A stretch of 64,000 nucleotides of DNA. Source: a virus (lineage: Duplodnaviria > Caudoviricetes). A program made the translations under genes and the position numbers. The DNA lies in IMG/VR virus record IMGVR_UViG_2563367162_000001, positions 23,569 through 87,568 of that record; one strand, given 5' to 3'. A model generated the notes under the pieces. The model was not told where the DNA came from. It saw only the letters and a program-made list of their open reading frames with translations, and made no database searches. Positions 14,797 to 64,000 of this stretch are shown here, piece after piece; position 1 is the first letter of the stretch, and the number at the start of each line of letters is the position of its first letter.

Positions 14797-14853
14797 TGTA
14801 CCTTGCAAATTTGGATACCACATTTTTATGTAATTTAATATATCCCACTTTTG
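14797..14853. repeat. IS21-type terminal sequence (TG start with two imperfect internal repeats)
   Basis: TGTACC... followed by TGCAAATTTGGATACCACATTTT and TGTAATTTAATATATCCCACTTTT. Confidence 0.6.
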
Positions 14854-14885
14854 TTGTATTGGTAGTTTACAGACATTAACTCTTT

Positions 14886-15659
14886 TTACGTCCCTATATC
14901 CTGTTCATGATTGCTAAAAATTGTTTTCCTGTTCTCCATCCGGTAACTTGTTCCCGACAGCCTTATTATCTCACAGCAATAGAGCAGCCTGTCAAGCAGT
15001 GCTGCCGTGACCGCTTCATCCTCCAAAGGTTCCAGCCACTGTACGAGTGCCTTGTTTGCCGTGATGACAAGTGATGTCCTTTCCTGGAACTCATTCACCA
15101 GTTTGAAAAGCAAAAGAGCGTCTTCTCTTTTCAGGGGAAAGAGTGTGGCATCGTCAATGGCCAGCAGCTGTGCCTTCATTATGCGTTTGTAAGTTTTCAT
15201 GGCATGGCGGGAGAGATCCTTTGTCTTCAAGCAGGTGAGCAGCTCCTCCAGTGTCACCATGTATGCCTTGTACCCCGCCTTCACGGCTTCATGGACAAGC
15301 CCGGCGGCAATGAAGGTCTTGCCTGTTCCGGAACCGCCTGTCAGAAGAATGTTGTATGCCTGTCCCACCCATACCAGCTCACGCAATTCGCGCAGCCTCC
15401 TTGCGTCCATGCCGTCCGTCCTTTCAAAGTCATATGTGTCCAGGTCATACCTTGGGGGAAGTCCCGCCGCCTTGAGCCGGCACAGGTAATTTTTTCTCTC
15501 CCTGTCGCGGACCTCCCGTTCCAGACATGCAAGCAGGAACTCCGGATAAGTCGGCTGCTTTTCCTGCGCCTCGTGAAGTATCGCTCCCATGTGTTCCGCC
15601 AGGTTCGGCAGCTTCAGGCGCCTTGCATATTCCACCAGTTCCTTCCTACGCTTTGTCAT
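14886..15659 (-). CDS. istB: IS21-family helper ATPase
   Basis: [14 protein letters not shown] and ALLDRL...GTSYR motifs. Overlaps the istA stop. Confidence 0.93.
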
Positions 15660-17208
15660 GGCCCGCAAAGATTTCGTTATACGACCGCATCGCCCCTGAC
15701 TGTGCCCCCGGATAACCGTCCGGATATGCCGTTCCCTTATCCTGTCCCCGGCTCCCGCACACATGCTCACACAGGCTCCTGACAGACTCGCCGTTGTAGA
15801 TGCCCTTGTCAAGACATATCCGCACAGCCTCTATCAGGGTACTTTTGTCAAATCCCGGAATGATCCGCAGGATCACTTCCAGATTGTCCTTGTAATAGCG
15901 CTCCTTCCTTCTTTTGAGATTCTCCATCCATAAGGCGACCTCCCGGTTTCCGGACACATAAATAAGGATGCGTTCTGCCAGCTTGCCGGCTCCGGTATTT
16001 CTCGGTTTCCTGTGCCCTTCGTCATAGACCGTCTTTCCTTTCCTGGTGCAGAGCTCGTGCCTGCCCACCAGCTTCCCCGTGCTTTTGCTGTAAAGCTCCA
16101 CATGCCCGTCAGCCTCCTGAAGCCAGAGCGTCGTCTCCCCGCTGCGGTAGGTTCCGCACGGAACGCTGTAGTAATTCCCCCGGTATTGCACGGTATTGTC
16201 CTTGCGCACATGGTATTCCCTCATCTCCTCCTGTGGCGGCTTCGGGATGCCATGGTAAGGCGTGAGATACCCCTGTTCCATCGCGAACTCCTCACTCGGG
16301 ACCAGATGTGTCGTTCCGTGCACCTTTCCGTTCCCCGTCCTTTCAAGCCACAGGAGGGCCTGCCCGTTCAGCGTGTCCGCATCGTGGTACACGCGGGCCG
16401 CCAGAAAGTTCTCCTTCACGTATTTCACGACATTCTCGACCTTCCCCTTCGACTCGGGATCGGCCTTGTGGCAGAACACCGGCTGGAAATGCTGCTCCCT
16501 GACGAATGCCTGGAACTTTCTGGTCAGTATCAGGTCGCCCAGGTTCTCCCGCGCTATGAGCACCCTGTCCTGGTCATAGACGATCTTTTCGGGCTTGCCC
16601 CCGAAATACGCGAATGCCAGCTCGTGCGCATACACCGCCAGCTCCGTGTCGAAGGGCCTGCGGCTGAAATGCACAAACTTGTAGCGTGAACGTGCCAGCA
16701 CGATGGCGAAAAAATACACCTTCGTGCTTCCGCCGTTCCGTGCCGGCATCCATTTTTCACCGAAATCCGCCTGGGCGTACTCCCCGTAAGGGGTGTCCGG
16801 CAGCTTCTCATAATCACGGCGTATGCGCGCCTCCGACTTTTTCCCGATTCCGTACTTCAGGCGTACCCTCTCCACAAAATTGAATACGGTCTTGTCACAC
16901 ACAACCGGAAAATCCGGATAACACTCCCTGAGCCAGTCATGCATCCGGGCGGATGAGATGTACGGGTATTCTTCCAGCATGCCCCGTACGTATTCCTCAT
17001 ACTTTCCCAGTTTCAGCTCGTACTTGCGGTGCGCACTCTGCTTTCTGACGAACTCTTCCCGGCTCATCTGCAGATACCTCCGTACGGTGCTCCGGTCCAC
17101 ACCCAGATATTTTCCGGTCTGTGTCTTGTTGAGTCCTTTGGACTGAAGTTCTCTTACCTTGTACCACATATACAGTTTGTCTTTAAAAAATCGGCTCATT
17201 GTTTCCAT
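15646..17208 (-). CDS. istA: IS21-family DDE transposase
   Basis: N-terminal HTHs, [18 protein letters not shown] and VHGTT motifs. Confidence 0.93.
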
Positions 17209-17369
17209 TACGATGTCGGTTTCTTTGTTGAGCCGGCAAAGATACGGACATTTTTACAGTGTGGGACAGTGCCGCCGTCTCCCGTGGAGGTGCGACATCG
17301 GCCTTTCCATTTTTCCACCGGTAAAGTTACAATTCACATGCCTTGCCGGACTTCCCCATGGCCGCAGTA

Positions 17370-17597
17370 TTATGGTACGTTTTCTCTTCCGCCCCTGCCG
17401 GCACGGAGAAGTCTTCCGATCCTGATGACGGCCCTGGATGTCGTGTGGACTGACGTGTCCTTCCAGCGTACATTCCGGAGCGTGTTGTAGCTGGCTCCGA
17501 CCCGCTGCGCGTCCAGATGGTCATAAATGGCGGCTATGCTGCCGAAAAAATAATCCTTCTTCTCAAAAATCAGATGTACATAAACCACTTTGTCCAT
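17370..17597 (-). CDS. Hypothetical protein
   Basis: 75-aa ORF (YFFGSIAAIY) co-oriented with and upstream of istA. Confidence 0.6.
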   Translation of the reverse strand: MDKVVYVHLIFEKKDYFFGSIAAIYDHLDAQRVGASYNTLRNVRWKDTSVHTTSRAVIRIGRLLRAGRGGRENVP

Positions 17598-17864
17598 ATT
17601 TCATTGTTCTTTTTTACAAATATATGCATATATATGGTATATGCATATATTCTTATCCTGTTCATGCAAATAATAAGTATATGCATTTTTTCAAACGAAT
17701 CTCTTATATTATACTTATAAAGTAACTTACTTAAATATACATAAAAGTATTTCTCGCATTCAAGTACCATACAGAGTCTTCCCCGTCACCCATAGGAACA
17801 AAAAAATCCCCATTCCCTTGAAAGGAGAATGGGGACACGGTAATAATAAAGGAGATGCCATCCG

Positions 17865-18122
17865 TTATATTTCCTTGGCATATCCAGTCCGGATGAGATC
17901 GGAAAGGAAATGTTCCGGAGTATCGGTGGCAATCCTCACCCCGGCCTCTATCACATAACGTTCGGCAAAATTGCACATGTACTGTTCGTCTGTACAGTCG
18001 GAATCCATCCAGCTGCCCGTGCGGAGCTCATGCACAAACTCTTTGGCGTCACCGGCGACGATACGCTCGTCGCCCGGTAACATATATGTCTTCTTGTTCA
18101 CATTATTCATACTGTCGTTCAT
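17865..18122 (-). CDS. Hypothetical protein coupled to the amidoligase
   Basis: ATGA overlap with the amidoligase stop; followed by a hairpin at ~17801-17836. Confidence 0.65.
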   Translation of the reverse strand: MNDSMNNVNKKTYMLPGDERIVAGDAKEFVHELRTGSWMDSDCTDEQYMCNFAERYVIEAGVRIATDTPEHFLSDLIRTGYAKEI

Positions 18123-19060
18123 ATTGCTAATTTTTTTGTTCTTAATTTGTAATACAACTTTTGTTTCTCTCCCAGGAAAGGAAAATTTTCCAGTCTGATT
18201 CCTGCAGGCAGAGAACCCACGGATGCAAAGGTAATCATTCTGTCGAGAAAACACACCCAATTTTCAATTTTTGTAAAACTGATGGTTCCCGAATGCTGTC
18301 TGAACTCCACCGTCCTGTGGCGTGAATAGGCTTGAAGGTTCACTTTCATATACCTGTTTGGAAACAGGCTCTGAAGCTCCCTGATATTCCGTGCCGAGCG
18401 TATCCGCTCATCGGGGAAGCGTGTGAGGGAGGCGCAGTAGGTGTTCGCGCTGCCCCTGCGTGAGGCTGGCATGAACCTGTCTATTTCCGCTTCGGCATGC
18501 TTGTAGGAAAGCAGCAGGTTCCGCCATGTGGTGATGTTGAAGTCCTCCGCATTCATGTGCACGTGCAATCCGCAGCTTCCATTAATCTTGACATTGCAGG
18601 AGTCCAGCACCCAGCAGACTCTCTCCAGTTCCTCCAGTCCGTCCTCTCCCTCCAGTATGGGACTTACGAGCTCGAATGTGTCATTCCCGTTCAGGCTGCT
18701 GTCCGTTACCAGTTTCCAGTGCGGACGGAGGTCATGGTTGTAGCTTTCCGAGGCCACCTGGATTCCCGCTTCCGCCAACTCGCGTACGAGCCGCTGGCAT
18801 GTACAGTTATAGGCTTCTATCTCAACACCGAACCTTCTTCTGAAAGAATAATCAGGTTCGGGTGTGGCGATGGTGGTTCCTGCGGATGCGATCAGCCCCT
18901 CGTCCCTCATTCTCTTGTAGACGTTCCATACAAACCCGCGGTTTCCACGGGTCACAAGGTCGGCGATCTCACGGTGGGTGAATCCGAGCAGAAGAAGTTT
19001 CCGTATCTTCGAAGTCTTTGTGCCGTTTTCCGCCAAAATGTTTCTAACTTGTTCATTCAT
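18119..19060 (-). CDS. Putative amidoligase (COOH-NH2 ligase) with N-terminal HTH
   Basis: FGVEIE, DSSL, ELVSPIL, SCGLHVH and TVEFRQH motifs. Confidence 0.85.
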   Translation of the reverse strand: MNEQVRNILAENGTKTSKIRKLLLLGFTHREIADLVTRGNRGFVWNVYKRMRDEGLIASAGTTIATPEPDYSFRRRFGVEIEAYNCTCQRLVRELAEAGIQVASESYNHDLRPHWKLVTDSSLNGNDTFELVSPILEGEDGLEELERVCWVLDSCNVKINGSCGLHVHMNAEDFNITTWRNLLLSYKHAEAEIDRFMPASRRGSANTYCASLTRFPDERIRSARNIRELQSLFPNRYMKVNLQAYSRHRTVEFRQHSGTISFTKIENWVCFLDRMITFASVGSLPAGIRLENFPFLGEKQKLYYKLRTKKLAI

Positions 19061-19269
19061 AAAATGTTATCTCCTTTATTATTATATTTCAAAGGTAACG
19101 ATTTTTCTTCACTTGTCCAAATATCAGCACGCTCTTTATCAGCATGTTAGCTTACTTTTGCTTCTGCTAAAAGTTGTATCCGTATGCCTCATGTTCCGGA
19201 TTTTACTCCTTTTCATGGGGGATTTTACGTGGAGTCCGCAGTTTTCCACATCCGCACATGTCCTTTCTT

Positions 19270-19660
19270 TTCATAGGGGGAACCTCCGGGATGCGCTGTC
19301 CCTTTGCCGGAATATCCGGACCCTCGCCGCCCGTGGAGCTAAGGGGGGCTTCCCCCCCTTAGTGAATTCCTGATAAGGAAGAGCAAGAGGAGTTCCCGCA
19401 CCCGGGAACATAAATCGACGCAAAGCGTTGATAATCACATATATAAATGTATATGACGTTACATACCACGCATACATTTGTATGCACATTCTATTCTTTA
19501 TGGCTGAAAAACAGCCGGATAGGCTGTAAGCATGTGTGTATGCTGCCGCGGCATTTTGCTAATTTTCAACAAGTTATATTATTTTATGCCCCTCACGTGG
19601 TGTTACGCTTTGTTCGTGTTTTTTTCTTAACTAACTTCGCCACCGCATTTTAAGCAGCTT
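19270..19660. other. Probable oriT region
   Basis: Non-coding, hairpin-rich (GTTCCCG..CGGGAAC, CGACGCAAAGCGTTG) and directly upstream of the mobilisation genes. The nic site was not identified. Confidence 0.45.
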
Positions 19661-19677
19661 ACAAAAACATATACAGG

Positions 19678-20220
19678 ATGAAAGAACACTCTGTCAAAAT
19701 GGTCAGACTGACTCCCAGCGTGAAGGCCAGACTGGATGTCTTCAAAGGGAGTGACACGACCAGTGTCTGTGTGGACCGGATGATCAGTTTTTTTGAAATA
19801 ACCGGCTTCAATCCACGCTATGCTTCCAAGAACCCGACGGCACTGCTGGAAAAGAGAATGGAGGACCTTATCAGGATAGTCAAGTCCCAGGAACGGGATA
19901 TATTCAAGCCCCTCCTTGAGAGGACTGCCGGCTCGGCCGGCAGTATTCGGGACTCCCCGGACTATGCCAGGATGATGAACGAGATGCGCGACCTGCAGGA
20001 AAAGAACAGGCAGCTCAGGCAGCAGGTCGCGGACCTCGGACAGGCTCCCGCCATGGATGTGGAGAAGGAACGGGACAAGCTCCGCAGGCTGGCCGACCTG
20101 GTGAAATACCAGCTTGATCCGGAGAAGTTTCCCCGGGTGAAGTTCAGTGACGAGGTGAAGGTTCCCGTCTCCACCCTCCAGCTGCTCATCAAGAGGATCA
20201 ATGAGGAATATGTACTGTAA
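19678..20220 (+). CDS. Mobilisation accessory protein (BfmA/BtgA-like)
   Basis: FFEITGFNP and IVKSQERD motifs; overlaps the relaxase. Confidence 0.65.
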   Translation: MKEHSVKMVRLTPSVKARLDVFKGSDTTSVCVDRMISFFEITGFNPRYASKNPTALLEKRMEDLIRIVKSQERDIFKPLLERTAGSAGSIRDSPDYARMMNEMRDLQEKNRQLRQQVADLGQAPAMDVEKERDKLRRLADLVKYQLDPEKFPRVKFSDEVKVPVSTLQLLIKRINEEYVL

Positions 20221-21160
20221 GACGCACCGTCCGGTGAACACCCCGGGGGTGTCTGACAACAAGGGAAAGTGTGTCCAGCTGGTGGAATATCTCAGCAAGG
20301 AATCGCAGGACGAGCGTCCCTATTATGATAATTTTTTCTCACAAAAAGAGGATTTCGTCACCCCGCAGACTGTCAGGCTCCATATAGACAACAACCACAG
20401 GACTCTGAAAAGGAGGGATGACAAGTTCTACATGCTCTCCGTCAATCCGTCCGGTGAGGAACAGGCACATCTGATAGAGAGGGTGACGGGTAGGAAGGTC
20501 GGGGAGTTCTCCGAACTCTCCCCCCGTGAGCAGGAGGACGTGCTGGCGGAGATGAAAAGGTTCGCCAGGGATTGTATGGATGAGTACGCCCGGAATTTTT
20601 ATCGTGAGAGGATCACCTCGGGCGCCGATCTGGTATGGTACGGGCGCGTGGAAACGGAACGGCATTACAAGAATGACGATCCCGATGTCAGGGAAGGAAA
20701 GGCGAAGGCCGGTGACAGGAAGCCGGGATTGCAGCTGCATGTGCATGTCGTGGTCTCCCGCATGGACAGGACACAGACCATATCCCTTTCCCCGCTTTCC
20801 AAGAGCAGGGGCAACCGGCAGATACTTGACGGGCAGGAGGTACTGGTAGGCTTCGACAGGTCGCAATGGTCCGCCCGGTGCGCCTCGCGGTTCAACCAGC
20901 GGTATGACTACTTTCCTTATTGCCGGTCGGACAACAGGGAGCTGAGGGAATATTCCGAGAACTGGAGGATAAGAAACGAGATGCGGAACGAGGCGGTGTC
21001 AAAAATCAAACAGGAGCTCCTGCATGGGGAGCTCCGGGAGGAAAGGCGGATGTACATGGGTGTCTGCCGCCTTTACCGGTTTGTGGTGAATCCCCGGAAA
21101 GCGATCATCCGGGAGCTGGAAAGACTGGGAACGGACCTTCTTACCGGAAAGGGAAGATGA
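20201..21160 (+). CDS. Relaxase, MobB/DUF5712 family
   Basis: LVEYLSKE, KFYMLSVNPS and KPGLQLHVHVVVSR (HUH) motifs. Confidence 0.85.
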   Translation: MRNMYCKTHRPVNTPGVSDNKGKCVQLVEYLSKESQDERPYYDNFFSQKEDFVTPQTVRLHIDNNHRTLKRRDDKFYMLSVNPSGEEQAHLIERVTGRKVGEFSELSPREQEDVLAEMKRFARDCMDEYARNFYRERITSGADLVWYGRVETERHYKNDDPDVREGKAKAGDRKPGLQLHVHVVVSRMDRTQTISLSPLSKSRGNRQILDGQEVLVGFDRSQWSARCASRFNQRYDYFPYCRSDNRELREYSENWRIRNEMRNEAVSKIKQELLHGELREERRMYMGVCRLYRFVVNPRKAIIRELERLGTDLLTGKGR

Positions 21161-21171
21161 CCGTCCGCCGG

Positions 21172-22776
21172 TCATTCACACGGGAACAGACTGCGTACCT
21201 CTTCAAGTATCCGCGCGAAGTTCCTGCTGACCTCCCCCGGCTCAAGGACCCTGACATCCGGCAGTGCTGTTTCCCGGCTGTCATCATACATGGCAAGTCT
21301 CACCCTGAAGTATCCGGCATTGGCGCGGGTGGCCGAACCGATGAACTCTCCCGGCTCCAGGTCGGTAAAGTCCTTTCCCTGGTAGATGTCCTCCTTTTGG
21401 GAGGACACCGTCACGCTCCGGTTCATGCTCCCCCCGCTTTTCCCCGTACTCCGGGATTTTCTCTCCTTCTCCTCCTTTCCGAAGATCAGCGGGTAATACT
21501 TCAGGGCTTCCACATCCTTCGTGCGCCCGAAGAACTGGTTCCCGAAATTGGCTTCCACGGATGACCTGTCAAGCTTCCCGTACAGGTTCTCCAGTTTGGA
21601 TCCCGACTGTGTGAGCAGGACAAAGGCGGCCTTGTACTCACGCAGGACCGACGGCAGTGTCTCGAAGTTCCTTATGTTGACCGTCGTCATCTCGTCCAGG
21701 AAATAGACGAAGGGCACCTTGTTCTGCATGGTGAACTGCCGGGAGGATATGCTCATTAGCATGCCTATCACCGGGGCGTAGACCGAATTCTTGGAGAAGT
21801 TGTTGCTGACGGCGAACATTTTCGGCTCCTGCGGGTCAATCAGGTTGAAATCGAAGTCGTCCCCCGAGAGGATGTATGCGATCTCCTCGTTCTGGGAGAT
21901 GGTGGCCAGGTTGTTGCATAGTGTGGAGAGGTAGGAGGCCTGCGTCTTCTCGGATCCTTCCGCCTTCAGGTATGCGCCGGCCAGCATTTCCGACACGAGA
22001 TTCTGCTGCAGGAACATGGAGAGCTGCCGGGTGGACGCGGTCATGATGAAGGCCATGATATGCGGCAGCGTGCAGAATTCCGGAAACTCATCCCAGAAAC
22101 GGAAGGCCACCCCGCGCAGGATTCCCAGACCTCCGGACACCCATTCGTTCTGCTGCTCCTTCTTGGGGAGGAGCGCGAGCAGGATGTCCTCCATCAGCTG
22201 GATCAGCTCGGTACGGTCCCTCACCACCTTGAGGGGGTTGAAGCGGTACGAGCGTTCCGGCTTGTCGAAACTGACATAATACAGCTTGTGGGGATAGCCG
22301 TGCTTTTTGATCAGATTATAGGCCGTCTGTGTATAGTCCGTGTCCTTGAAGTCATAGATGAACCCGGCGAATCCGAGTCTGACATATTCCTCCAGCAGCC
22401 ATTTGCCTATGCTTTTTGTCTTTCCGGAACCGGCGCCGCCATATACGAGGAAGTTTGCGAAATGGTAATGGAATTCCAGGTGGGTGTGCGGAATCCCCGA
22501 GATCACCGGCAGCCGGACCGGTTTTCCGCCCCCTCCTTTTACTGCGGCCCCGGCATGCTCCCATATCCACAGAAAGGCTGCCACGGCCAGTGAGACGGCG
22601 GCGGGAAAGAACATGTACCGGGGAAAGAACAGGCGTGCCAGAAAGGTTTCCGCCGCCATGCAGCCGAGAAATACGGGCAGGTTTACGTACCATTTCCGGC
22701 TCAGTGTCGAAACCCCTGTCATCAGGGAGACTATGGCCAGAAGAACCAGCTTGATGTAAATGATGTAATGTTCCAT
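21172..22776 (-). CDS. Type IV coupling protein (VirD4/TraD-like)
   Basis: N-terminal TM segments, GGAGSGKT, YDFK, FNPL and FLDEM motifs. Confidence 0.9.
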   Translation of the reverse strand: MEHYIIYIKLVLLAIVSLMTGVSTLSRKWYVNLPVFLGCMAAETFLARLFFPRYMFFPAAVSLAVAAFLWIWEHAGAAVKGGGGKPVRLPVISGIPHTHLEFHYHFANFLVYGGAGSGKTKSIGKWLLEEYVRLGFAGFIYDFKDTDYTQTAYNLIKKHGYPHKLYYVSFDKPERSYRFNPLKVVRDRTELIQLMEDILLALLPKKEQQNEWVSGGLGILRGVAFRFWDEFPEFCTLPHIMAFIMTASTRQLSMFLQQNLVSEMLAGAYLKAEGSEKTQASYLSTLCNNLATISQNEEIAYILSGDDFDFNLIDPQEPKMFAVSNNFSKNSVYAPVIGMLMSISSRQFTMQNKVPFVYFLDEMTTVNIRNFETLPSVLREYKAAFVLLTQSGSKLENLYGKLDRSSVEANFGNQFFGRTKDVEALKYYPLIFGKEEKERKSRSTGKSGGSMNRSVTVSSQKEDIYQGKDFTDLEPGEFIGSATRANAGYFRVRLAMYDDSRETALPDVRVLEPGEVSRNFARILEEVRSLFPCE

Positions 22777-22793
22777 TGTGATGATTTGCTTGA

Positions 22794-33338: not shown

Positions 33339-33484
33339 AATTCATTGGCATAAACAATTTGAATTTAAGGTGGAGAGGTCCTGTTGCAGTGATGCACCGG
33401 GACTTCATTTTTAAACGTAAACACATTAAAGAGATTCAAAAGAAAACAGCATAAGCTCCTATAAGAATATGCTTGGTATCTGTT

Positions 33485-33505
33485 CCAACAGTACTATTAC
33501 AGCCA
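33485..33505 (+). repeat. Shufflon recombination site 1
   Basis: CCAACAGTACTATTACAGCCA, exact match. Confidence 0.92.
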
Positions 33506-34341: not shown

Positions 34342-34373
34342 AAAAATGGTTTTATTGAACTGACAGCATTAAG

Positions 34374-34404
34374 ATAGCGAAACCAATTCTCTCGGTTTCG
34401 CTAT
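34374..34404. terminator. Bidirectional terminator
   Basis: ATAGCGAAACC/GGTTTCGCTAT hairpin between convergent ORFs. Confidence 0.7.
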
Positions 34405-34428
34405 TAAATTTTGCATACAGTGCAAAAA

Positions 34429-35171: not shown

Positions 35172-35222
35172 TAATATTCCCCGGAAATAATCGTTATGAC
35201 AAGTGGTTCTCCGGAAGAGTAA

Positions 35223-39973: not shown

Positions 39974-39975
39974 AG

Positions 39976-51102: not shown

Positions 51103-51930
51103 TTATGGTTTGATTGTTCCGGTATAGTCTTCTCCCGCCTCCCAGGGGCGGACGTTCACACCGGAGAGGATGAGCGTCCCTTCCTTGTCCAGGGTCAGCG
51201 CATGGCCGTATCTCTTTCCGGGCTCGAGGGTGCCCGCCGGAAGATACCAGTCGTAAGTTCTTTCCCGGTAATGTATCCGCGCCTTGCCGCCACCGGCCGG
51301 TCCGGGAAACATGAGCAGCCTGTTTCCCACGGAGACGAGGGTTCCGGTTTCCGGTTTTATGGACAGGGTTCCGTCGGCAAGGTCGTACATGCCTTCCGTC
51401 GGCACCCCGTCAAGACTCAGGCTGCAAGCGTCACTTCCGTCCACGGTGACTTCCATAAGGGAGAGCAGGTGTGCCATCTCAATGTCCGCCCGGTTGTTGA
51501 GCCAGTCGAGACGCAGCTCCCCGGATGCCATGTAGTCGGTCTGGGTTGTGAGACTCACGGGCAGTTCCTGCCCCTGTATGCTCAGGAAGGGATGGAAGGC
51601 GAACAGCCTGCAGGCTGTTTCCGTAAGTGTCACTTCCGGGAAATGCCACCCCCCGCCGTATGTCACATGCAACGGGTTGGCGACACCTGTATAGGCACCG
51701 CCCGCATCGTCCAGCAGTATGATGCCGAAATCCTCCACCCGGGAGTTTCCGTCATCCGCGTCGTTGCCGCGGCTGGAGCAGCTTTCTATCTGCAATCCCG
51801 CCTCCCTGTTCTGCGGGAGGGGATCCCGCCCGTCCGAGCAGCCTGTGAGGACTGCCGGCAGCAGGACCGGGATTATAAGTTTGAATACTTTTATTTTCAT
51901 ATATTGCTTCTTAATGTCAGTTTCTCTCAT
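51103..51930 (-). CDS. Fimbrillin-family lipoprotein
   Basis: Lipobox LTGC, FAFHPF, QTDYM, HLLS and LEPGKRY motifs. Confidence 0.8.
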   Translation of the reverse strand: MRETDIKKQYMKIKVFKLIIPVLLPAVLTGCSDGRDPLPQNREAGLQIESCSSRGNDADDGNSRVEDFGIILLDDAGGAYTGVANPLHVTYGGGWHFPEVTLTETACRLFAFHPFLSIQGQELPVSLTTQTDYMASGELRLDWLNNRADIEMAHLLSLMEVTVDGSDACSLSLDGVPTEGMYDLADGTLSIKPETGTLVSVGNRLLMFPGPAGGGKARIHYRERTYDWYLPAGTLEPGKRYGHALTLDKEGTLILSGVNVRPWEAGEDYTGTIKP

Positions 51931-53531: not shown

Positions 53532-53579
53532 TGTTTTATGTTTTACAGGGAACCTTCCGGTTCCCTTCGGATGAGTAAA

Positions 53580-54530
53580 TTATTTGACCGGCACAAGGGT
53601 GATGTCGGATTCGGTGGAGGTCCATCCCTCTATGGTCACCGACTGCCCGTTCGAGCCTCCGATTTCCGCATTGTTGGAACGCATGGTGATCGAGTAGATG
53701 TATCTCTTCCCCGCCTCCCAGGTGATCTGCGGGATGGAATACGTGTAGGTTGCCCCGTCGATCACCACCTCGAGTGTCACCTCGCCTGAGGCCAGCGCCA
53801 TGGGATAGACCGCCGCGGCGAAGTCCACTGCCTGCTGTCCCTGTGCGGGGACGGTCGTGTTCGGCGCCCATGAGAGTTCCGTGGTAGTGGGGCTGAACGT
53901 GATCTTTCCGCCGTCGTTCAGGTTCATTGTGCCCGTGGTGCCGAACTTGGCCCTGGAGGATTTCAGCCTGGCCGATGTGAGGTTGCCGTCGTTATGATAC
54001 TCCGGTGACACTTTCAGACGGATTACCAGCTGTGACAGGGCGTGCTTCATCGGTATCCTGGCGTCTGTCTCCACAACGGAAACCTGGTTGGTGCTTTTCC
54101 CCCACATATAATCAATCGGGGTGCCGGCATTGACGGGGACGGGGATTCTGGTTCCGTCCGTCACCGACTGGTTATACGGATAATATGCCCATATGGTGGC
54201 CTTGTCCGAGAGCAGGTACACGGGGCTGGCCTGCGTCCAACTGTTCGCCTGCCTGGTCGACTTGTTGTTCTGCGCGCTGTAACGGGGATAGGCGTCGCCC
54301 CATCCGGTCGCCTTGTACATGAACAGCCCGATGGCGTCACCCGCCGCCCAGTCCGTTTTGGAGATGAAGCCGGCCCTCGTTTCCGCGCCGACCGTCGGAA
54401 GGATGTTCAGCTGTGATACCGGCTGTTCCTCCCCCGTGTTCTTTCCGTTGAATACTTCCTCGTTGTTGCTGCATGAGGCCAGCAGCAGGCCTGCGGTCAT
54501 GACCGCTGAAAGAAAAAAAATTGTCTTCAT
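53580..54530 (-). CDS. Fimbrillin-family lipoprotein (candidate major type V pilin)
   Basis: LASC, ETRAG, AYYPY, MKHALS and WEAGKRYIY motifs. Confidence 0.85.
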   Translation of the reverse strand: MKTIFFLSAVMTAGLLLASCSNNEEVFNGKNTGEEQPVSQLNILPTVGAETRAGFISKTDWAAGDAIGLFMYKATGWGDAYPRYSAQNNKSTRQANSWTQASPVYLLSDKATIWAYYPYNQSVTDGTRIPVPVNAGTPIDYMWGKSTNQVSVVETDARIPMKHALSQLVIRLKVSPEYHNDGNLTSARLKSSRAKFGTTGTMNLNDGGKITFSPTTTELSWAPNTTVPAQGQQAVDFAAAVYPMALASGEVTLEVVIDGATYTYSIPQITWEAGKRYIYSITMRSNNAEIGGSNGQSVTIEGWTSTESDITLVPVK

Positions 54531-54544
54531 GTTGAAAAAATTAA

Positions 54545-55423
54545 TTAAAGATTTGGTAATTCAGTCTCCGGTATGTCCTCCCACTCGGGAATGACAACCG
54601 GATCGTCTATCGTAAGTTCCCTGCCGATGTGCAGGTTCAGTTCCAAGGAGAGCTCGTCACCGTCAAATCCTCTGACATACGGGGTCAGGTCGACCGACTG
54701 CTGTTCGTCGAACACCGAGTCCTCGCCGTCCATCCCGACCTTTACGGTCAGTGTATTCTCCACCGCGGGATTGAACCCGAAGACATACAGGCTCGTTTTC
54801 CATTCATCCGTGCCCGCTTTGCGTGCGAACACGCTCGTGACACCCGCGTTCCCCGTCCTTTCCCGCGAGACAAGGTACCGTCCGGTCGAGATGCCGGAAA
54901 GCGTGCCTTTCAGGGAGGACAGCGGAGCGGTGTTGCCGGATACGTTGACCTGTATGTTCAGGCGCTGGACGAATGCGGACGGGGTAATCCGCACCCTTTT
55001 GGGGCTCTGGTATTCCAGACGTTCATTCAGCATGGCCGTACAGCAGAATCTCTGCACGCCGGAAATGTATGCCTCGCCGTCCAGCGTGTCGGTGGCGGCG
55101 GTGAGCCGTGCCTCGTGGTAGTCCCCGGTGCCGGCCGCCTCATAATTCCCTGTATAGAACAGGAAGCGGTATCCGCCCTGCGGGATACTCCACCTGAGGG
55201 TGTCCTGCGTGAAGGTCACAGTGGTCCCCGCGGGGAGGTCCGTATCCGCCGGATAGGCTGTCAGATGCCTCTCCTCCGGTACCGGAGGGGGCACGCTGAT
55301 ACCGCTGAAGTCACACCAGGCGACCAGTTCCCCGTTTCTTGTGCAGAAATCCTCATTGAAGTCGCAGCCGGCCAGTGCGGCTGCAAGGACTGCTAAAGAT
55401 ATCAGTCTGTCAGTATAGTTCAT
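54545..55423 (-). CDS. DUF5119/Mfa2-like anchor lipoprotein
   Basis: LAGC lipobox, no TR processing motif, C-terminal IPEW; position in the pilus operon. Confidence 0.6.
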   Translation of the reverse strand: MNYTDRLISLAVLAAALAGCDFNEDFCTRNGELVAWCDFSGISVPPPVPEERHLTAYPADTDLPAGTTVTFTQDTLRWSIPQGGYRFLFYTGNYEAAGTGDYHEARLTAATDTLDGEAYISGVQRFCCTAMLNERLEYQSPKRVRITPSAFVQRLNIQVNVSGNTAPLSSLKGTLSGISTGRYLVSRERTGNAGVTSVFARKAGTDEWKTSLYVFGFNPAVENTLTVKVGMDGEDSVFDEQQSVDLTPYVRGFDGDELSLELNLHIGRELTIDDPVVIPEWEDIPETELPNL

Positions 55424-57479
55424 CTTTATACAAATTATAGGTTACTATCAGTTTGTTGATCTCCGGATCGAGCCTGCCCCTCCATATCTTGGAATCATCC
55501 TGGTCACATGACTTCACATATGTCTTCAGGGCTTCCTCCTCCCGTCCCAGACGGCAGTAGAGGATGGCGAGCAGATAGTTCCTGTCCGAAGTGTCCGGCT
55601 GTGCCAGCATGATGTCGAGCGCACGGCTGTCATAACCGAGCGACATCAGGCAGACCGCGGTGTTGTAGTCCTCACCGTAGGATTCCTCCAGAATGGAGAG
55701 GGCCCTTCTGTATTGTCTGTCCTCTATCAGGCCGACCGCCTCCATGTAGGTGCTGTCGATGACCGGCATCACGACCGTGTCCTGGATCATGTTCCGGCGG
55801 TGGAGATGGAACTTGAACTCCACACCGCGCAGGAGCGGGTAGTGCTTCTCCCGGATACGCCTGTAATCGGAGGCGTATCCGCGCAGGGCCTGCTCCCGGC
55901 TGTCGGGGTTTCTTGTCTCTTCCATGACATGCAGCAGCGCGGTTCTGTTTGACAGGCTGTCATCCGCACGGACCAGCTCGTGCAGTCTGGCCCAGTCCTC
56001 GCCGATCCAGTGGGGGCGGAAGAGCGTGTCGACCCCCTCGCGGTCATCCGTACGTTCGGCAAGGTACCGTTTGAGTGCCAGCGCACGTTCCCTCGAAAGG
56101 AAAAGGTTCATCTCGGAGCTGCCCTCGGGGGACGAGGTGGCCGTCATGCGGATGCTGTCTATCAGGAATTCTCCCGTATAACTGATTCCCCTGATTGTCT
56201 CGAACACCTTGTCGATCTCCGCCTTGTTGTTTCCGGTATTCTCGGAAAAGCCGGTGCTTCCGGGCTTGTAGGTCACATATGCCCGCAGGCTGACTTCGTC
56301 CTTGCGGGTGATGATCCTCTTCTTGTAACGCGGTGTACGGTCAAGGAACTGCACCATGCTTGAAATGAAATAGGTAATCGTGTCCGACGGGGGAAGCGCT
56401 GTCCGTGTCTCGTCCTTCGAGAGTATCTGGCCGTCAAGCGTGAGGTCTATCTTCTTCGTGTTCTCGGTGGCGGGAAGCTCCTGCTTGTAGTAATACACGA
56501 AACTGTCGCCCTCCTTTATGACCGTGTCCAGACGGGCGCTCTCGTAGGGAAAGCGTACATACTTCTCGTACATCTCGCCGGCCAGTTCCTTCCTTTTCTG
56601 GTTCTCGGCCATTTTTCCGTAATCGGTGAAACGTTCCGTTATCGCGGCGGAATCTTCCGGAGTGATGCTTTTTGTGCGGATCCTGTGGTTGCCGTCGGCG
56701 AAGATCCTCCATTTGGAGGGGATGTACCGGCCGTCCATCTCCCGACGCAGCCAGTATGCCGGAAGATGCTCGAGTATGGAGTTGTATCCGGCGATGGCCT
56801 GCCGGTTGCGCTCCATCTTGTAATTGAACAGCGCGAACCGGGCGTTGGCCTTGTCGGACCAGTCAATCCACCTCTCCTTGGCGATGACCTCGTGTTTCCA
56901 TGCCTGGAAGTATTCGTCCTCAAGCTCTGCCAGCGCCTTCCTGTAGCCTTTCTCGTCAAACAGTTTCTGCAGGTAAAGGCTGTCCGGAATGATGGAGTTC
57001 ATGAACGCCTGGTACCGCATATAACCCTTTTTCTGCATTTTGGCGAAATCGGCTCCCGAAAGGAAGATCCTCTCCAGACGGATCGTGTCCGTCCGCTTGT
57101 AGGCCACGGGAGTGAGCTGGAGCTGCCATTTGTTGCTGATCAGCTCGCCGGGAACCGTGACTACAAAATCCAGGTTGATCCTGCCGTTTCTCTCGGCCAC
57201 CTGTTTGCTTCTCGCCACCACGGTGATTTCCGTCAGTTCCATCTGGGTTATGTATTCACCCGTCACACTGTCCTTCGCAGCTTCCGTCACGATATGCTGC
57301 ACCCCCTTCTCGTCCGTCCAGGTAACCTGTTTGGGGAGCTGGTAGTTCGTGTCGGCCGCCGTCTCCCTCATTTGTGGCTGGGAGATGCGCACACGTGCCA
57401 GGCGGGGAGCGGTGGAACAGGAAAGCAGCAGGCCGGAGAACACTGCGAACGGCAGGATATGTCTTGTCTTTCTCATCAT
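55410..57479 (-). CDS. Pilus-associated lipoprotein with OmpA-like and TPR-like regions
   Basis: SSPEG...N..LS.ERA, GEDW and YPLLR motifs. Confidence 0.7.
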   Translation of the reverse strand: MMRKTRHILPFAVFSGLLLSCSTAPRLARVRISQPQMRETAADTNYQLPKQVTWTDEKGVQHIVTEAAKDSVTGEYITQMELTEITVVARSKQVAERNGRINLDFVVTVPGELISNKWQLQLTPVAYKRTDTIRLERIFLSGADFAKMQKKGYMRYQAFMNSIIPDSLYLQKLFDEKGYRKALAELEDEYFQAWKHEVIAKERWIDWSDKANARFALFNYKMERNRQAIAGYNSILEHLPAYWLRREMDGRYIPSKWRIFADGNHRIRTKSITPEDSAAITERFTDYGKMAENQKRKELAGEMYEKYVRFPYESARLDTVIKEGDSFVYYYKQELPATENTKKIDLTLDGQILSKDETRTALPPSDTITYFISSMVQFLDRTPRYKKRIITRKDEVSLRAYVTYKPGSTGFSENTGNNKAEIDKVFETIRGISYTGEFLIDSIRMTATSSPEGSSEMNLFLSRERALALKRYLAERTDDREGVDTLFRPHWIGEDWARLHELVRADDSLSNRTALLHVMEETRNPDSREQALRGYASDYRRIREKHYPLLRGVEFKFHLHRRNMIQDTVVMPVIDSTYMEAVGLIEDRQYRRALSILEESYGEDYNTAVCLMSLGYDSRALDIMLAQPDTSDRNYLLAILYCRLGREEEALKTYVKSCDQDDSKIWRGRLDPEINKLIVTYNLYKDELY

Positions 57480-57488
57480 GGCGGGAAA

Positions 57489-58031
57489 TTAGAACAGATA
57501 TACAAGGTTCAGTGCGGCGCGGGTGGGCAGGAAGCGCCAGCCGTAGTCACTCTCCACCAGGTCCCCGCAGCGTCTGCACAGGTACCTGTCATATCCCAGC
57601 CACACCGCACCCGCACCGATCTCCCATTCGAGGTTCCAGCGTGTGCCCAGCTGGTAGGCTCTCCCGATACTGACCCCCGCACCGTATCCTTCGCCCTCGT
57701 AACGGTACCTGCTGCCGAACAGGTTGCCCGCACTGTATGTGCCGGCAGTGGCGTACATGCCGATGAAACCGCCCATGTAACTTTCCAAAAGCCAGTAACG
57801 TACTCCGGGAGCGGCATAAAAATTGCGGAACTGTCGGTTCTTTGAGAAGGTGAACGGGTTATACTGCAGCGGCAGGTGTAGCGACCATTTGCGGTTCAGC
57901 GTCATGGACGCCTCCAGATTCAGGTTGGCCGTTCCCAGCCCGAGCAGGTTGGTGCGCAGGGAGTAGGACTGCGCCGCCGCGGACAACGAGCAGGCAAACA
58001 GCCCGTAGAGAAGAAAAGAACGCTTTCTCAT
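57489..58031 (-). CDS. DUF3575 outer-membrane beta-barrel protein
   Basis: RTNLL, YNPF, RYEG and terminal PT.AALNLVYLF motifs. Confidence 0.85.
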   Translation of the reverse strand: MRKRSFLLYGLFACSLSAAAQSYSLRTNLLGLGTANLNLEASMTLNRKWSLHLPLQYNPFTFSKNRQFRNFYAAPGVRYWLLESYMGGFIGMYATAGTYSAGNLFGSRYRYEGEGYGAGVSIGRAYQLGTRWNLEWEIGAGAVWLGYDRYLCRRCGDLVESDYGWRFLPTRAALNLVYLF

Positions 58032-58321
58032 GACTGTACGTCCTCCTTGTCCTTGATGACGGTCACCTCCCATGCGGTAAGGGTGTTGAACCACCGGTTA
58101 TCCCACTGGCGGGCGGAAATGTCAAACTTGACATGCACAGTCATACCGGTTTCGACCGCATAACGGTCGATGTTGGCGTTCATCAGTTGCAGGCACACGC
58201 TCTGCGGCCTGCTTTCCTCGGTCTCAAGAACGAACTCGCGGCTTTTCCACTCGTTGCCAGAGGTTTTGCCGATCCCGTCTCTGACGGGAAGTACGGCGAT
58301 GATTTTTCCTTTTATTTCCAT
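58028..58321 (-). CDS. DUF3127 OB-fold protein
   Basis: MEIKGKI, GNEWKS and RWFN...AW motifs. Confidence 0.85.
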   Translation of the reverse strand: MEIKGKIIAVLPVRDGIGKTSGNEWKSREFVLETEESRPQSVCLQLMNANIDRYAVETGMTVHVKFDISARQWDNRWFNTLTAWEVTVIKDKEDVQS

Positions 58322-60874: not shown

Positions 60875-61792
60875 TCACATCTCACGGCCGTTGACCGGAG
60901 ATCTGATCTTCTGCAGAAACTCGTTGAAATCATTGCATGAGGGGTACAGCCGTTCCGACTCGTTCACCAGCACCGTGGTTTTCGGCAGCAGGCCCTGTAT
61001 CTTCCTCAGGGCCTCACGGCCGGGTGGATCATTGTCGAGAAACGCATGCACCTTCCCGTACCTTGAAAGGAAATCCTTCGAGCGGTCGGCGATGGCCGTG
61101 GAGTTCAGCACGCAGATGTCGAGCTTTCCGAGCTCCGGAATTTCGGGATGCTCCTTGGCATACTGCCTGAAACTGAGCAGGTCGAAGAATCCCTCAAAAA
61201 GGGCGCAGGATTTGTTCCCGTCCGCAATACAGGTGATATCCTTGGCGTTGGCACACCCCTTGAACATGCTGTTGCGGAGCTCGAACCCCGAGCGGTCGTT
61301 GGCAAAGCCAAGCGCGTATTTCTCACGGGGGTTCCTCTCGAAGCAGTAATGCACCTCCACACAGTGGCTGCGGACAATATCCGCATCAATGTGGCGTGAG
61401 GCGGCGTAGTCAAGTAGATGCCTGTTCTCCACCGGGATGACTTTCAGCACCTTCATTGAAGGGGCCTGCACCGTCCTGCCGGGGGATGCTGCCGTCGGCA
61501 GGACGGGAGGGACGACGGCCAGACCGGAGAATCCAAGTTCCTCAATCCGGCGCATGGCCTGCGGGAAGGCGCAGTTCTCCATGCGCATGACCAGATCGAC
61601 AACCCGGCCGTGGCTGCCTTCCCCGAAATCATACCAGCGGTTCTCGTGTATGAAAACCTTGAAGCTCGGGGAGCTGTCACGCCGGAAGGGCGAACTGTAC
61701 ATGTCATACCCTCCATACCGTCTGGACGGCTTGTAGCCGTAGCGGGCAAGGATGTCTCCCAACGGGATTGAATTGGCTTCCTGTGATGTCAT
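60875..61792 (-). CDS. DNA primase (zinc-finger-like plus Toprim), CTn TraP-like
   Basis: SPFR..SPSFKV, WYDFG, FEGFFD.LS and LDND..G motifs. Confidence 0.88.
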   Translation of the reverse strand: MTSQEANSIPLGDILARYGYKPSRRYGGYDMYSSPFRRDSSPSFKVFIHENRWYDFGEGSHGRVVDLVMRMENCAFPQAMRRIEELGFSGLAVVPPVLPTAASPGRTVQAPSMKVLKVIPVENRHLLDYAASRHIDADIVRSHCVEVHYCFERNPREKYALGFANDRSGFELRNSMFKGCANAKDITCIADGNKSCALFEGFFDLLSFRQYAKEHPEIPELGKLDICVLNSTAIADRSKDFLSRYGKVHAFLDNDPPGREALRKIQGLLPKTTVLVNESERLYPSCNDFNEFLQKIRSPVNGREM

Positions 61793-61950: not shown

Positions 61951-63069
61951 CTATGCGGGGACAGCCTGCCGCATACGGCTCAGGAGAAACCGTGTGGGAC
62001 TTTTGATCCTCTTGTTGCCCCAGGTCTCCTTCAGGGCCGTGTCAAGCACCACGGGCGCCACGGAGGCGAGCTGCAGGATCTCCTGTTGGTCCTTCGCCGC
62101 GACTCCCAGAAGCTCGAGTGTCTTGCGGCGGTTGCGCATGGTTTCCTCCTGCCTCCTCTGCCGGTCGGCCTGTCCGTACTCGGCGTTGTATTTGGCGATA
62201 TAGTTCTCGATCAGGGGATACAGGAAGTTGATATTTGTAAGCTGGAAATTACTCTGCTCAAGCTCCCGGATCCCCCTCTCGATGGGAAAGTCCGGATAAT
62301 ATCTTTTCAGGGCATGCACCCATCCGATGTAGTGGTCGGACACGCCCAGATATCTAAGTTTTCCTGAAAGGGAGATCCCGTCCTCCTCCCCGCCCGGATT
62401 TCCGGCGGGTTGTGCCGGAGGGGTTGGGGAGGATATTTGTTTTTCTTTTATTTTATGCAGTTTATTTTCGCGAGGTATTTCCGGTTTTTCGCGAACATCC
62501 CTGTTTGCCGTATCTGCCGCCGGCTGCATGGACAGGTCGGCCACTGCCTGTTCGGGAGCCGGGGTTTTCTCCGGCGGGGAGGGAGTGTCATGCCCGGACA
62601 CCGGTATCTCCGCCCGTCCGGGACGGCAGGATGCGGATACGGCTTCCGGCGGTGCCGGAACTGATACCGGTGACTCTTCGGCGGCCAGCAGGGAAATATC
62701 CCCAGGGATCGAGGGTTTCCGGTGGATGGCCTTGCAGATGCCCACATAAAGTTCCTGTATATCCTCACTGGTGAGAATCTGTCTTTCCCGCCACAGGGCC
62801 TTGTTGAAAAGGCCCAGGTCGGCACAATAGTCTATTATGGACGAGATCTCCTGTTCGTCCATACGGGAGTAGTCGGATATGTCGAACAGACCGTCGGCAT
62901 CCATGAGCATGTAGCACCCTTCAACACGGAAAATCTCGTTTATGATGAAATGGTACACGCCCCAGCCTTCCATGCCGAACTTGTTTTTTAGTCTTTTGAC
63001 TTTCGGATCATAGAAGTGGTCGGTCTCGAACCTGAAATAGGTGAAACCTTTTTTCGCTGTTTTTGGCAT
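61951..63069 (-). CDS. DUF4373 domain protein (putative replication initiator)
   Basis: YF..D...DPKV.RL...FG..G and LTS..IQ motifs, Pro-rich linker. Confidence 0.75.
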   Translation of the reverse strand: MPKTAKKGFTYFRFETDHFYDPKVKRLKNKFGMEGWGVYHFIINEIFRVEGCYMLMDADGLFDISDYSRMDEQEISSIIDYCADLGLFNKALWRERQILTSEDIQELYVGICKAIHRKPSIPGDISLLAAEESPVSVPAPPEAVSASCRPGRAEIPVSGHDTPSPPEKTPAPEQAVADLSMQPAADTANRDVREKPEIPRENKLHKIKEKQISSPTPPAQPAGNPGGEEDGISLSGKLRYLGVSDHYIGWVHALKRYYPDFPIERGIRELEQSNFQLTNINFLYPLIENYIAKYNAEYGQADRQRRQEETMRNRRKTLELLGVAAKDQQEILQLASVAPVVLDTALKETWGNKRIKSPTRFLLSRMRQAVPA

Positions 63070-63106
63070 AAGCTTATTTATTTAAAGTGGATAATGATCT
63101 TATGGA

Positions 63107-63544
63107 TCAACTGGCCGAAAGCTCGAACTCCTTGGGGATTTCGGGAAACGGGGGGAACACGCCGCAGGACTGGAGATAGTTCCGCTGGATGTCCGCGGAG
63201 GTCAGCACGCGGTGTTTCTCGTATAGCTCACCGTTGAAAAGGCCGACCTGTATGCAGCCGTTGACAATTCTTGTGACATCTTCCAAAGAGGCATTCCAGT
63301 AGGAAGCGACCGCACGGGCGGTCTCCTCGCACCAGGGAAGAAGATAACCTCCCTTGCAGAGCGTCTCGTTCACGAGATACCGGTAAATGCTGTAGCCGGA
63401 AAAACCGTATTTGCGGGTGAGTCTTCTGATTTTCATGTCTGAAAACTGAGAAGTGCTGATCTCATAGCAGGGACGGGTGCAGTACTCATGCCGCCGTGTG
63501 TGCCCCGAGAGGGGACGGCCCGTTGTAAAACTTTGGATATTCAT
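63107..63544 (-). CDS. Second DUF4373 domain protein (short)
   Basis: D.KIRRL..KYG..G and VLTS.DIQ.NY motifs. Confidence 0.75.
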   Translation of the reverse strand: MNIQSFTTGRPLSGHTRRHEYCTRPCYEISTSQFSDMKIRRLTRKYGFSGYSIYRYLVNETLCKGGYLLPWCEETARAVASYWNASLEDVTRIVNGCIQVGLFNGELYEKHRVLTSADIQRNYLQSCGVFPPFPEIPKEFELSAS

Positions 63545-63628
63545 ATATATAATAAGGTATAATGTTGCTGTATTAAAAGACAAGTGCACGAAAGTCCGGG
63601 TTCCGCCGGGATAGACGGAACCGGAAAA

Positions 63629-64000
63629 TCACCTTGCGGAAAGAATATGGTGCTTTTTGCGGATGAACTGCACATAATTGTGCACAGTCTTCTCACAGAC
63701 CCGGGGAAAGTCCGGATAGTGCTCTTTTAAATGGTCGTGGACACGACTGCTGGAAATGGAGGGGAAACGAAGTAGCAGCGAGACAACTGCCTGCTCGTAG
63801 CGGTGAAGCTTGTACCGGCGGTTCTTTGAGTTCTGACATTCTAAAATGAGATCCTCGGAACTCAAAGACTCGAGATGTTTCACTGTATCGCGGGAAACTC
63901 CAAGACGTTGTGCGGTTCTCGTAATGTTGATACCACGAGAACGAAGATCAAGGATAGTATTCCGTAAAATGTATTTTTTCCTTAAATTTGCCGTATCCAT
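63629..64000 (-). CDS. Stand-alone IstA N-terminal DNA-binding (double HTH) protein
   Basis: Aligns by eye to the first ~120 aa of IstA (LGV.R.TV, P.ISS.R.HD.L.E.YPDFP.VC.KTV.N.V) and stops before the DDE domain. Confidence 0.8.
   Translation of the reverse strand: MDTANLRKKYILRNTILDLRSRGINITRTAQRLGVSRDTVKHLESLSSEDLILECQNSKNRRYKLHRYEQAVVSLLLRFPSISSSRVHDHLKEHYPDFPRVCEKTVHNYVQFIRKKHHILSAR

Follow-up and report, generated by a model that had tools for sequence, protein, structure and literature searches.

Conjugative transposons of the Bacteroidales such as CTnDOT and CTn341 have a boundary tyrosine integrase and excision proteins and use selected sites, and integrases are the marker that serves to find and delimit integrative and conjugative elements (ICEs). 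Known members of the IS21 family of insertion sequences (ISs) measure about 2–2.7 kb. In the study of IS5376, the DDE transposase IstA needs IstB for integration, shows low target specificity, pairs two like ends in vitro and gives 5-bp duplications (PMC10122671). IS21 is described there as acting on tandem junctions, in which the ends abut, and a –35 box of the right end and a –10 box of the left end form a promoter (PMC10122671). Described ICEs with a DDE transposase include TnGBS1/2 of Streptococcus agalactiae and ICEA of Mycoplasma agalactiae (PMC5587801). The TnGBS transposase is of the Mutator-like/ISLre2 kind, and the report on it remarks that IS21 also moves via a circular intermediate, which could couple to conjugation, and that such associations may be underestimated (PMC3942029). 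In mouse-gut Bacteroides vulgatus, IS21-like ATPase/transposase pairs were seen beside Tra genes, which were maybe copied along with one such pair (PMC4860699); in the passages concerned, that paper treats the pairs as ordinary ISs and the adjoining transposons as truncated, and gives no ends, duplications or proposal of mobilisation by IS21. Here we describe an element in a stretch of 64,000 nucleotides (the window), positions 23,569 to 87,568 of virus record IMGVR_UViG_2563367162_000001, that is very probably a self-transmissible Bacteroidales conjugative transposon integrating by IS21-type DDE transposition and not by site-specific recombination. As a matter of structure, it is close to certain that window position 14797 to about 64075 forms one conjugative mobile unit. 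We found no description of an IS21-ended or IS21-driven conjugative element in the literature searched.

The left tip of this element is an intact IS21-family insertion sequence, with the following features in window coordinates:

14797–17338, minus strand: complete IS21-family insertion sequence of 2,542 bp, the outer end of which doubles as the left terminus of the conjugative transposon
14797–14837, no strand: outer terminal repeat (TGTACCTTGCAAATTT...), downstream of istB; another GTAATTTA motif follows about 25 bp inward
14886–15812, minus strand: istB, AAA+ helper ATPase (PF01695, 7.4e-59; NF038214, 233.7 bits against a cut-off of 200)
15646–17208, minus strand: istA, DDE transposase of 520 amino acids (aa) (NF033546, 183.7 bits against a cut-off of 160)
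17320–17338, no strand: inner terminal repeat, upstream of istA, reading TGTGAATTGTAACTTTACC from the outside inward and matching the outer end at 11 of 19 positions

The longest open reading frame (ORF) of istB has 308 aa, with a likely ATG start, judged by eye, near 15667. The catalytic triad of IstA is D148, D212 and E258, invariant in the four lineages compared here; in the alignment to IS5376 IstA (8q4d/8b4h) it falls on D124, D187 and E233, the triad given for that enzyme (PMC10122671). Both IS termini are of the TG...CA kind, and in the type of IS carried by a related element, that of genome G001, inner and outer ends agree at 14 of 18 positions. The outer repeat is conserved in the four lineages and in two solo copies, with flanks that diverge immediately outside it. 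The initial annotation of this DNA had placed an IS21-like end downstream of istB, and this is indeed the true boundary, at 14797, where the similarity of the relatives stops and an empty site (below) breaks.

The same annotation had reported no inverted end upstream of istA, a statement that has to be corrected. A repeat search of 14600–18200 gave no inverted pair for the IS ends, the inner repeat being too weak, and this end was defined by comparison. Similarity between the window IS and the G001-type IS, which is 79% identical and present in four other genomes, stops at ...GTAAAGTTACAATTCACA at 17338, and the G001-type IS likewise ceases to resemble a solo copy in genome G313 at the equivalent inner end. 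A solo relative in genome G426 has an 8-bp duplication, TTATTGGA, at the equivalent ends. The reverse complement of a 25-mer of the outer end occurs nowhere in the whole record, even with up to 6 substitutions allowed, and the two ends of the record do not overlap. The solo copy in G313 (L051, G313:C1:356730-359073) is of the G001 type, 94–95% identical, carries an istB deletion of about 170 bp and is without a target duplication, a state that suggests rearrangement after insertion.

The IS alone is not bordered by a target duplication: in the window TGGTTCG stands on one side and TGCCTTG on the other, and none of four elements has one. The initial annotation had set a matching repeat between 17210 and 17700 against its own proposal. 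Such a repeat does exist, at 17338, but with no duplication proper to the IS in 4 of 4 elements it does not rescue the reading as an ordinary IS.

Duplications were found instead around the whole unit. The similarity of relatives to the window ends at 14796/14797, and the DNA outside differs in each genome from the first base. Inward, the relatives share one gene order over 50–64 kb, namely intact istAB, the transfer genes, a gene for an IstA N-terminal protein of 119–124 aa and an IS21-like TG...CA terminus. In genomes G001, G002 and G004, found through IstA, the IS adjoins the same backbone genes as in the window. The paired junctions are:

G001: duplication ATACTTG, one contig (C31:1072-58428), unit of 57,357 bp
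G002: duplication AAATGAG, two contigs
G004: duplication TTTTAAAA, two contigs
G419: duplication TCTAAATT, one complete contig, unit of 50,121 bp
G426: duplication CCATTAT, one complete contig, unit of 64,230 bp

Thus, a direct repeat of 7 or 8 bp encloses the unit in 5 of 5 paired junctions, with one lineage represented by three genomes; the two 8-bp duplications can be read as 7 bp if the terminus is one base longer. The repeat sequences differ between sites and are thus duplications of the target made by a staggered cut, rather than a recombination core, and the presence of a duplication round the whole unit, together with its absence round the IS, indicates that the IS arrived as part of the larger unit. 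In G002 the insertion has a promoter-like stretch in its left flank and the start of a sigma-factor-like gene in its right flank.

The opposite terminus lies next to a second, shorter gene related to istA:

63629–64000, minus strand: IstA-N', 123 aa, a copy of the pair of helix-turn-helix domains found in an IS21 transposase, encoded next to the far terminus on its inner side

This is the IstA-derived gene that the initial annotation had noticed at the far side, and it is 39% identical to residues 8–121 of IstA (E 2e-26). In the relatives the far terminus is located 74–75 bp upstream of the IstA-N' ATG, and hence just outside the window record. The sequence common to G001, G002 and G004 extends 75 bp beyond the equivalent of window position 64000 and stops at ...TTACCGCCCTCA / ...GCAGCTAAATTACCGCCCTCA, followed by three different flanks. 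The placement of the two genes is parallel, IstA-N' being about 75 bp inward of the far terminus and istA 130 bp inward of the IS inner end. All three kinds of end, inner, outer and far, share TG at positions 1–2 and G(T/C)A(A/C)nTT at positions 9–15, and the form GTAACTT is identical in the far end of G419 and in three inner ends, those of the window, G001 and G426. IS21-family ends are each built of at least two direct repeats (L1-L2, R1-R2), for which candidates can be made out by eye in the outer end (GCAAATTT at 9–16 and GTAATTTA at 34–41) and in the far end (GTAATTTA at 9–16 and GTAATCTG at 32–39), and the inner end shows no clear second repeat. Between the far terminus and the IstA-N' ATG there is a palindrome, TTCGTAATCTGG...CCAGTTACGAA. 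In all four lineages and in every variant locus examined, the far side consists of the repeat and the 119–124-aa gene only, with no complete IS.

From these sequences, the cutting and joining is probably done by the element's own IstA and IstB. Another possibility is that the resident IstA is insufficient and the far end is served by another protein, either IstA-N' in a mixed transpososome or a cognate IS21-family transposase acting in trans. Several features of IstA-N' speak for such a division of labour, as it is conserved (dN/dS 0.06–0.18), is next to the far end in all copies seen, is one of a family of short proteins (38 clusters, 73–208 aa) and is well diverged from IstA, while the far end itself agrees with the IS ends at only a minority of positions and contains the palindrome. 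Other IS21-family elements are also present in these genomes, for example in 3 copies in G313. Nevertheless, the G(T/C)A(A/C)nTT core occupies the same offset in all three kinds of end, and no protein longer than 216 aa with the IstA-N' N-terminus was found at E <= 1e-5, which is weak evidence. Moreover, since the element begins on the left with an end that belongs to the resident IS, at least some part in the reaction must fall to the resident IstA. On balance we consider service by another protein unlikely.

The site of insertion in the window is a gene that can be followed in its uninterrupted form:

14320–14796, plus strand: fragment of an erythromycin-esterase-family gene (PF05139), 99% identical to P0002, corresponding to residues 125–283 of a 642-aa relative
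14790–14796, no strand: TGGTTCG, predicted left copy of a 7-bp target duplication, based on the 7–8-bp duplications of the relatives and on the empty site in run X4

This esterase gene is the target of the conjugative transposon, and its 5' part was removed at 14319/14320 by the end of a Mu-like prophage. A contig of run X4, from another isolate, spans 14320–14796 and continues on both sides with an intact esterase frame (QELKTAVIQF after 14796), reading ...GGTTCG/CAAGAATTAAAA, with the break exactly at 14796/14797. In it the site is empty with respect to prophage and conjugative element alike. The C-terminal 359 residues of the esterase are absent throughout the 87.6-kb record, in agreement with the earlier remark that the interrupted host gene does not resume, and no locus carrying the remainder of the gene was found. 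The right TGGTTCG copy is predicted to lie past the end of the record.

Runs X4, X13 and X5 contain copies at least 99% identical to the window IS end that are joined to three other flanks, and in each of these runs one contig leads across the inner end at 17338 and on into the backbone. Copies of the IS end and adjoining backbone with at least 99% identity are found at four sites in four runs from four studies, beside the empty site; run X1 may be the window's own source and is not independent. A 24-mer of the far end is present in at least 119 gut metagenome contigs and 7 viral contigs. Among the 126 instances listed, 123 have at least 20 nt of flank and give 75 distinct flanks, a number that here and below refers to the matches listed. 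The flanks are AT-rich, with a peak at positions 3–5 of the duplicated stretch (71–81% A+T) and no strict motif. These results, with the whole-unit duplications, a different site in every genome and the empty site, support the initial annotation's proposal of an IstAB-driven conjugative transposon, as does the synteny that it had asked about, istAB standing beside the transfer module at different loci in four lineages.

The element might nevertheless be a fossil, left fixed and immobile after a transposition long over. Decayed remnants do exist, and one flank seen 35 times among the 126 far-end instances listed belongs to such a remnant, also found in G313; in addition, a circular junction (far end, 0–15 nt, outer end) had 0 matches in metagenome contigs and 0 in viral contigs, which would rarely hold one. 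Immobility is at odds with nearly identical copies at four sites beside an empty one, with 75 distinct flanks for a single far-end sequence type, and with transposition and transfer genes that are all intact. We therefore regard the fossil explanation as extremely unlikely.

The remnant (L048, G313:C1:3236000-3248000, and 35 metagenome or viral loci with the flank CTAATAGCTGGAACCC) is what is left, fixed and decayed, of the far end, and comprises IstA-N', a single Lin1244_N gene and the beginning of the gene after it. It is cut by a different IS21-family element of 3.5 kb, present in 3 copies in G313 and with a frameshifted istA. The G313 locus was considered as a fifth element and rejected, being a decayed remnant plus a separate solo IS with an istB deletion and no duplication. 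The 45 longest interiors outside the remnant type include 32 covered to at least 93% by the G001 element, 4 covered to 48–85%, and 9 that share only the terminal 0.5–1.3 kb; IstA-N' is retained in all 6 examined of these 9. At L112, L104, L079, L103, L167, L122, L113, L128 and L185, the far end and IstA-N', with or without the Lin1244_N gene, are joined to DNA other than the G001 backbone. Such loci may be rearranged copies, or other elements using the same end module.

Further searches concerned single sites and ends. No empty site was found for the G001 insertion: its right flank occurs in 82 of 301 family genomes, with no match that starts at the first base of the flank, and its left flank matched 0 of 9 loci tested. 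None was found for the G002 insertion either, whose right flank gave only paralogues of 66–69% identity in 12 of 301 genomes. A 16-mer of the outer end matched 18 loci in viral contigs, with real IS ends only at L211 and L220, and a far end could be matched to neither of them. Of the genomes or records from which L009, L003, L211, L220 and L193 come, only the record of L193 itself was found to contain the far end. At the family level it matched 4 of 401 genomes, the real cases being G004 and G313 and the other two chance matches of 27–31 nt, and at the genus level 3 of 250 genomes matched.

The element has no integrase at either boundary that could account for these insertions, as the initial annotation had already seen for the window. 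Among window ORFs of at least 80 aa, the only tyrosine recombinases are in an internal cassette region:

36321–37484 and 38993–39973: tyrosine recombinases of the cassette region

No tyrosine or serine integrase is present at either boundary of the window element, whose left flank is the plain esterase gene, and the one with attachment sites that the annotation had weighed against its proposal did not appear, the far end having 75 flanks. The G001 element (C31:1072-58428) has no PF00589 match, the sole match on the contig being in the flank (C31:112-555), and PF00239 (resolvase family) has no match in the G001 genome. G419 has one cassette-type recombinase inside its element, and G426 a recombinase fragment only. 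Recombinase genes outside the IS ends of G001 (G001:C31:58-993) and G426 (G426:C1:~1799717-1800523) were considered as parts of the element and rejected, as the similarity between them is confined to 41 residues (37%) and neither their distance nor their strand is the same. The G001 target is bracketed by a short inverted repeat, ATTTGCCATTAC / GTAATGGCAAAT, and the element may favour sites close to DNA that is invertible or mobile.

These data bear on whether the IS21 is a passenger at the tip of an element inserted by an unrecognised recombinase or by the relaxase. Precedent favours a passenger, as a large ICE survey, described as covering no Bacteroidota-type elements, takes DDE transposases inside ICEs mostly as passengers (PMC5587801), and candidates for the missing enzyme could be sought among backbone proteins of 455, 689 and 177 aa without a family match and the tyrosine recombinase sequences inside 3 of 4 lineages. 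However, the unit boundary coincides to the base with the terminal TG of the IS in all 8 left junctions (window, G001, G002, G004, G419, G426, X4 and X13); in the X5 left junction the flank matches the window for 5 extra bases by chance. TG...CA ends with variable 7–8-bp duplications are the signature of staggered-cut transposition and not of site-specific recombination, and the G001 element lacks PF00589 and PF00239 matches altogether.

The divergence of the genes also argues against a passenger. The window and G001 elements are colinear over 14797–64000 with 68–86% DNA identity, the IS itself being 78.6% identical, and IstB, IstA, the transfer genes and IstA-N' are common to the four elements, in which istAB keeps its synteny with the transfer module across about 14–32% DNA difference. 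IstA, IstB and IstA-N' are intact in all four lineages, with dN/dS of 0.05–0.18, the same range as the coupling protein and relaxase, although these ratios are rough, as synonymous sites are near saturation. As judged from these comparisons, purifying selection acts on istAB, and its divergence is about that of the backbone. We thus hold it very unlikely that the IS is a passenger.

For the preferred mechanism, in which the element is moved by its own IstA and IstB, the left terminus is the outer repeat of the intact IS and the right terminus the IS21 left-end-like repeat about 75 bp upstream of IstA-N', a protein with the DNA-binding domains only. IstA would pair the outer end with the far end instead of with its own inner end, and with IstB would insert the whole 50–64 kb at AT-rich targets of low specificity by a 7–8-bp staggered cut. 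The likely substrate would be a circle with abutting termini, as in the IS21 tandem junction, and the same circle could also serve the relaxase as transfer substrate. IstA-N' may bind the far end, as a regulator or a structural subunit. Both the formation of the circle and the use of the far end as an IstA substrate are proposed here by inference.

Several points weigh against this mechanism. The IS keeps its own inner end, which is expected to compete with a far end 50–64 kb away, and by eye the far end matches the IS ends weakly, at 8–9 of the first 24 positions. With IstA-N' only 39% identical to the IstA N-terminus, the far end could need a different binding protein. The duplications are of 7–8 bp and not of 5 bp as in IS5376, with the 8 bp of the solo copy in G426 as the single covering example. 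Two of the five pairs depend on joining two contigs of one assembly, and at two of the five insertions an unrelated gene for a tyrosine recombinase lies within 2 kb of the IS end, on its outer side. Finally, the case for transposition, excision and transfer is made here from sequence, none of them having been observed directly.

A more elaborate reading, which we put forward tentatively and consider doubtful as a whole, is that a widespread family of gut Bacteroidales elements swapped its integrase module for the reactive-junction machine of IS21, with a split promoter and an IstA-N' switch. In it, the junction of far end and outer end in the circular transfer form might be inserted by IstA and IstB at any AT-rich site. 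This junction might also create a promoter, with TTTG of the outer end as –33 box and TAATTTAG of the far end as –7 box, about 18 nt plus the spacer apart; the idea builds on the usual promoter consensus. Such a promoter could turn on IstA-N', the primase and the transfer operon only when the element is excised, and IstA-N' could be the far-end subunit, or a repressor, that chooses between movement of the 2.5-kb IS and of the 50-kb element.

Between the two termini, the window element has the following backbone and cargo:

17339–17800, no strand: variable segment adjoining the IS, not common to the relatives, with a 75-aa ORF and an AT-rich palindrome (17619–17691)
18119–19060, minus strand: Amidoligase_2 gene, first conserved backbone gene after the IS
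20201–21160, plus strand: MobB-family relaxase (PF18976; NF041495, 206.9 bits against a cut-off of 200)
21172–22776, minus strand: type IV coupling protein (TraG-D_C/TrwB)
29578–30399, plus strand: ParA-type ATPase
33469–41559, no strand: cassette (shufflon-like) region with DUF6242 genes and two tyrosine recombinases, absent from the G001 element
42746–43933, minus strand: DUF4138 (mating pore)
45122–46102, minus strand: Transposon_TraM (mating pore)
46745–47518, minus strand: TrbL-like (mating pore)
47524–48045, minus strand: DUF4141 (mating pore)
48062–50479, minus strand: TraG P-loop ATPase (mating pore)
51103–58094, minus strand: Mfa-like fimbrillin operon with DUF3575
60875–61792, minus strand: Toprim / CHC2 zinc-finger primase-like gene
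61951–63069 and 63107–63589, minus strand: two Lin1244_N-domain genes

A relaxase, a coupling protein and Bacteroidota-type mating-pore genes are therefore all contained within one element, as expected of a Bacteroidota-type ICE. A plasmid form was sought in PLSDB with 14797–22780 as query, and none of the 28 records returned covered more than 13% of it. The extra DNA of G001, a human-gut relative, consists of two SusC/SusD pairs (L200:7585-12793 and L201:6999-11864), at positions taken in the window by other genes and by the cassette region. At the position of 17339–17800, G426 has 7.6 kb of cargo including GmrSD and a two-component system. This segment beside the inner IS end differs in every lineage and looks like a preferred site of cargo gain.

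The window is the last 64 kb of the 87,568-bp virus record, and the two end together. Its positions 1–14319 and the 23.5 kb preceding it are a Mu-like transposable prophage, with genes for Mom, a reverse transcriptase, tail proteins, Portal_Mu and Mu F, and an AAA_22 ATPase beside a 667-aa gene that occupies the transposase position. The prophage ends on the right at 14319/14320, within the esterase gene, 477 bp before the point at which the conjugative element entered this gene too, and these 477 bp (14320–14796) are the only host DNA between the two. In run X5 the prophage end is joined to another flank. No tRNA genes were found in the window. The record stops exactly at the ATG of its final gene, 75 bp before the predicted terminus of the element. 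The virus record fuses the prophage and most of the conjugative element, probably as a result of boundary trimming at gene coordinates; trimming at a gene start would explain why it stops at that ATG.

A family with IS21 ends would be missed, or called truncated, by pipelines that rely on integrases, and here one of its members was filed in a virus record. With low site specificity, such elements can land in genes or promoters, as in the esterase gene here and at the start of the sigma-factor-like gene in G002, and they carry nutrient-uptake genes (the SusC/SusD pairs of G001), defence genes and surface-variation cassettes. They also offer a natural system in which to study the choice that a transposase makes between one end close by and another 50–64 kb off.

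Like IS21 and IS5376, the element has an IstA DDE transposase with an IstB AAA+ helper, TG...CA ends, low target specificity and short duplications. In contrast to them, the ends proposed to be paired are 50–64 kb apart and enclose a whole conjugation system, and the second is not an IS copy, but a diverged left-end-like repeat with a 119–124-aa, DNA-binding-only paralogue of IstA; the duplication is of 7–8 bp, against 5 bp in IS5376. A compound transposon likewise has an IS-derived end on each side and a transposase acting on the two outermost ends, whereas here only one side has a complete IS, and the other has a repeat and a conserved, non-decaying 123-aa gene of a lineage 39% identical.

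With CTnDOT and CTn341 it shares the phylum, a relaxase, a coupling protein and mating-pore genes of one kind (TraG P-loop, TraM, DUF4138), but it differs from them in having no boundary integrase, in its TG...CA ends, in its variable 7–8-bp duplications and in its 75 flanks. The closest parallel in mechanism is with TnGBS and ICEA, in which DDE transposition also replaces a tyrosine or serine recombinase and the transposase gene is likewise at the element's edge. As expected of a DDE-transposase ICE, the whole element has transposon ends and duplications and is found at many sites. It works like elements of that kind without being a member of those families, as its transposase is of the IS21 family, while TnGBS and ICEA have single-protein transposases without an IstB-type ATPase, Firmicutes or Mollicutes hosts and a different type of mating pore. 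We know of no truncated DNA-binding paralogue at the far end of TnGBS or ICEA, and to our knowledge this would be the first conjugative element with a two-protein transposase that includes an AAA+ target selector. We regard it as a probable IS21-driven variant of the DDE-transposase ICEs.

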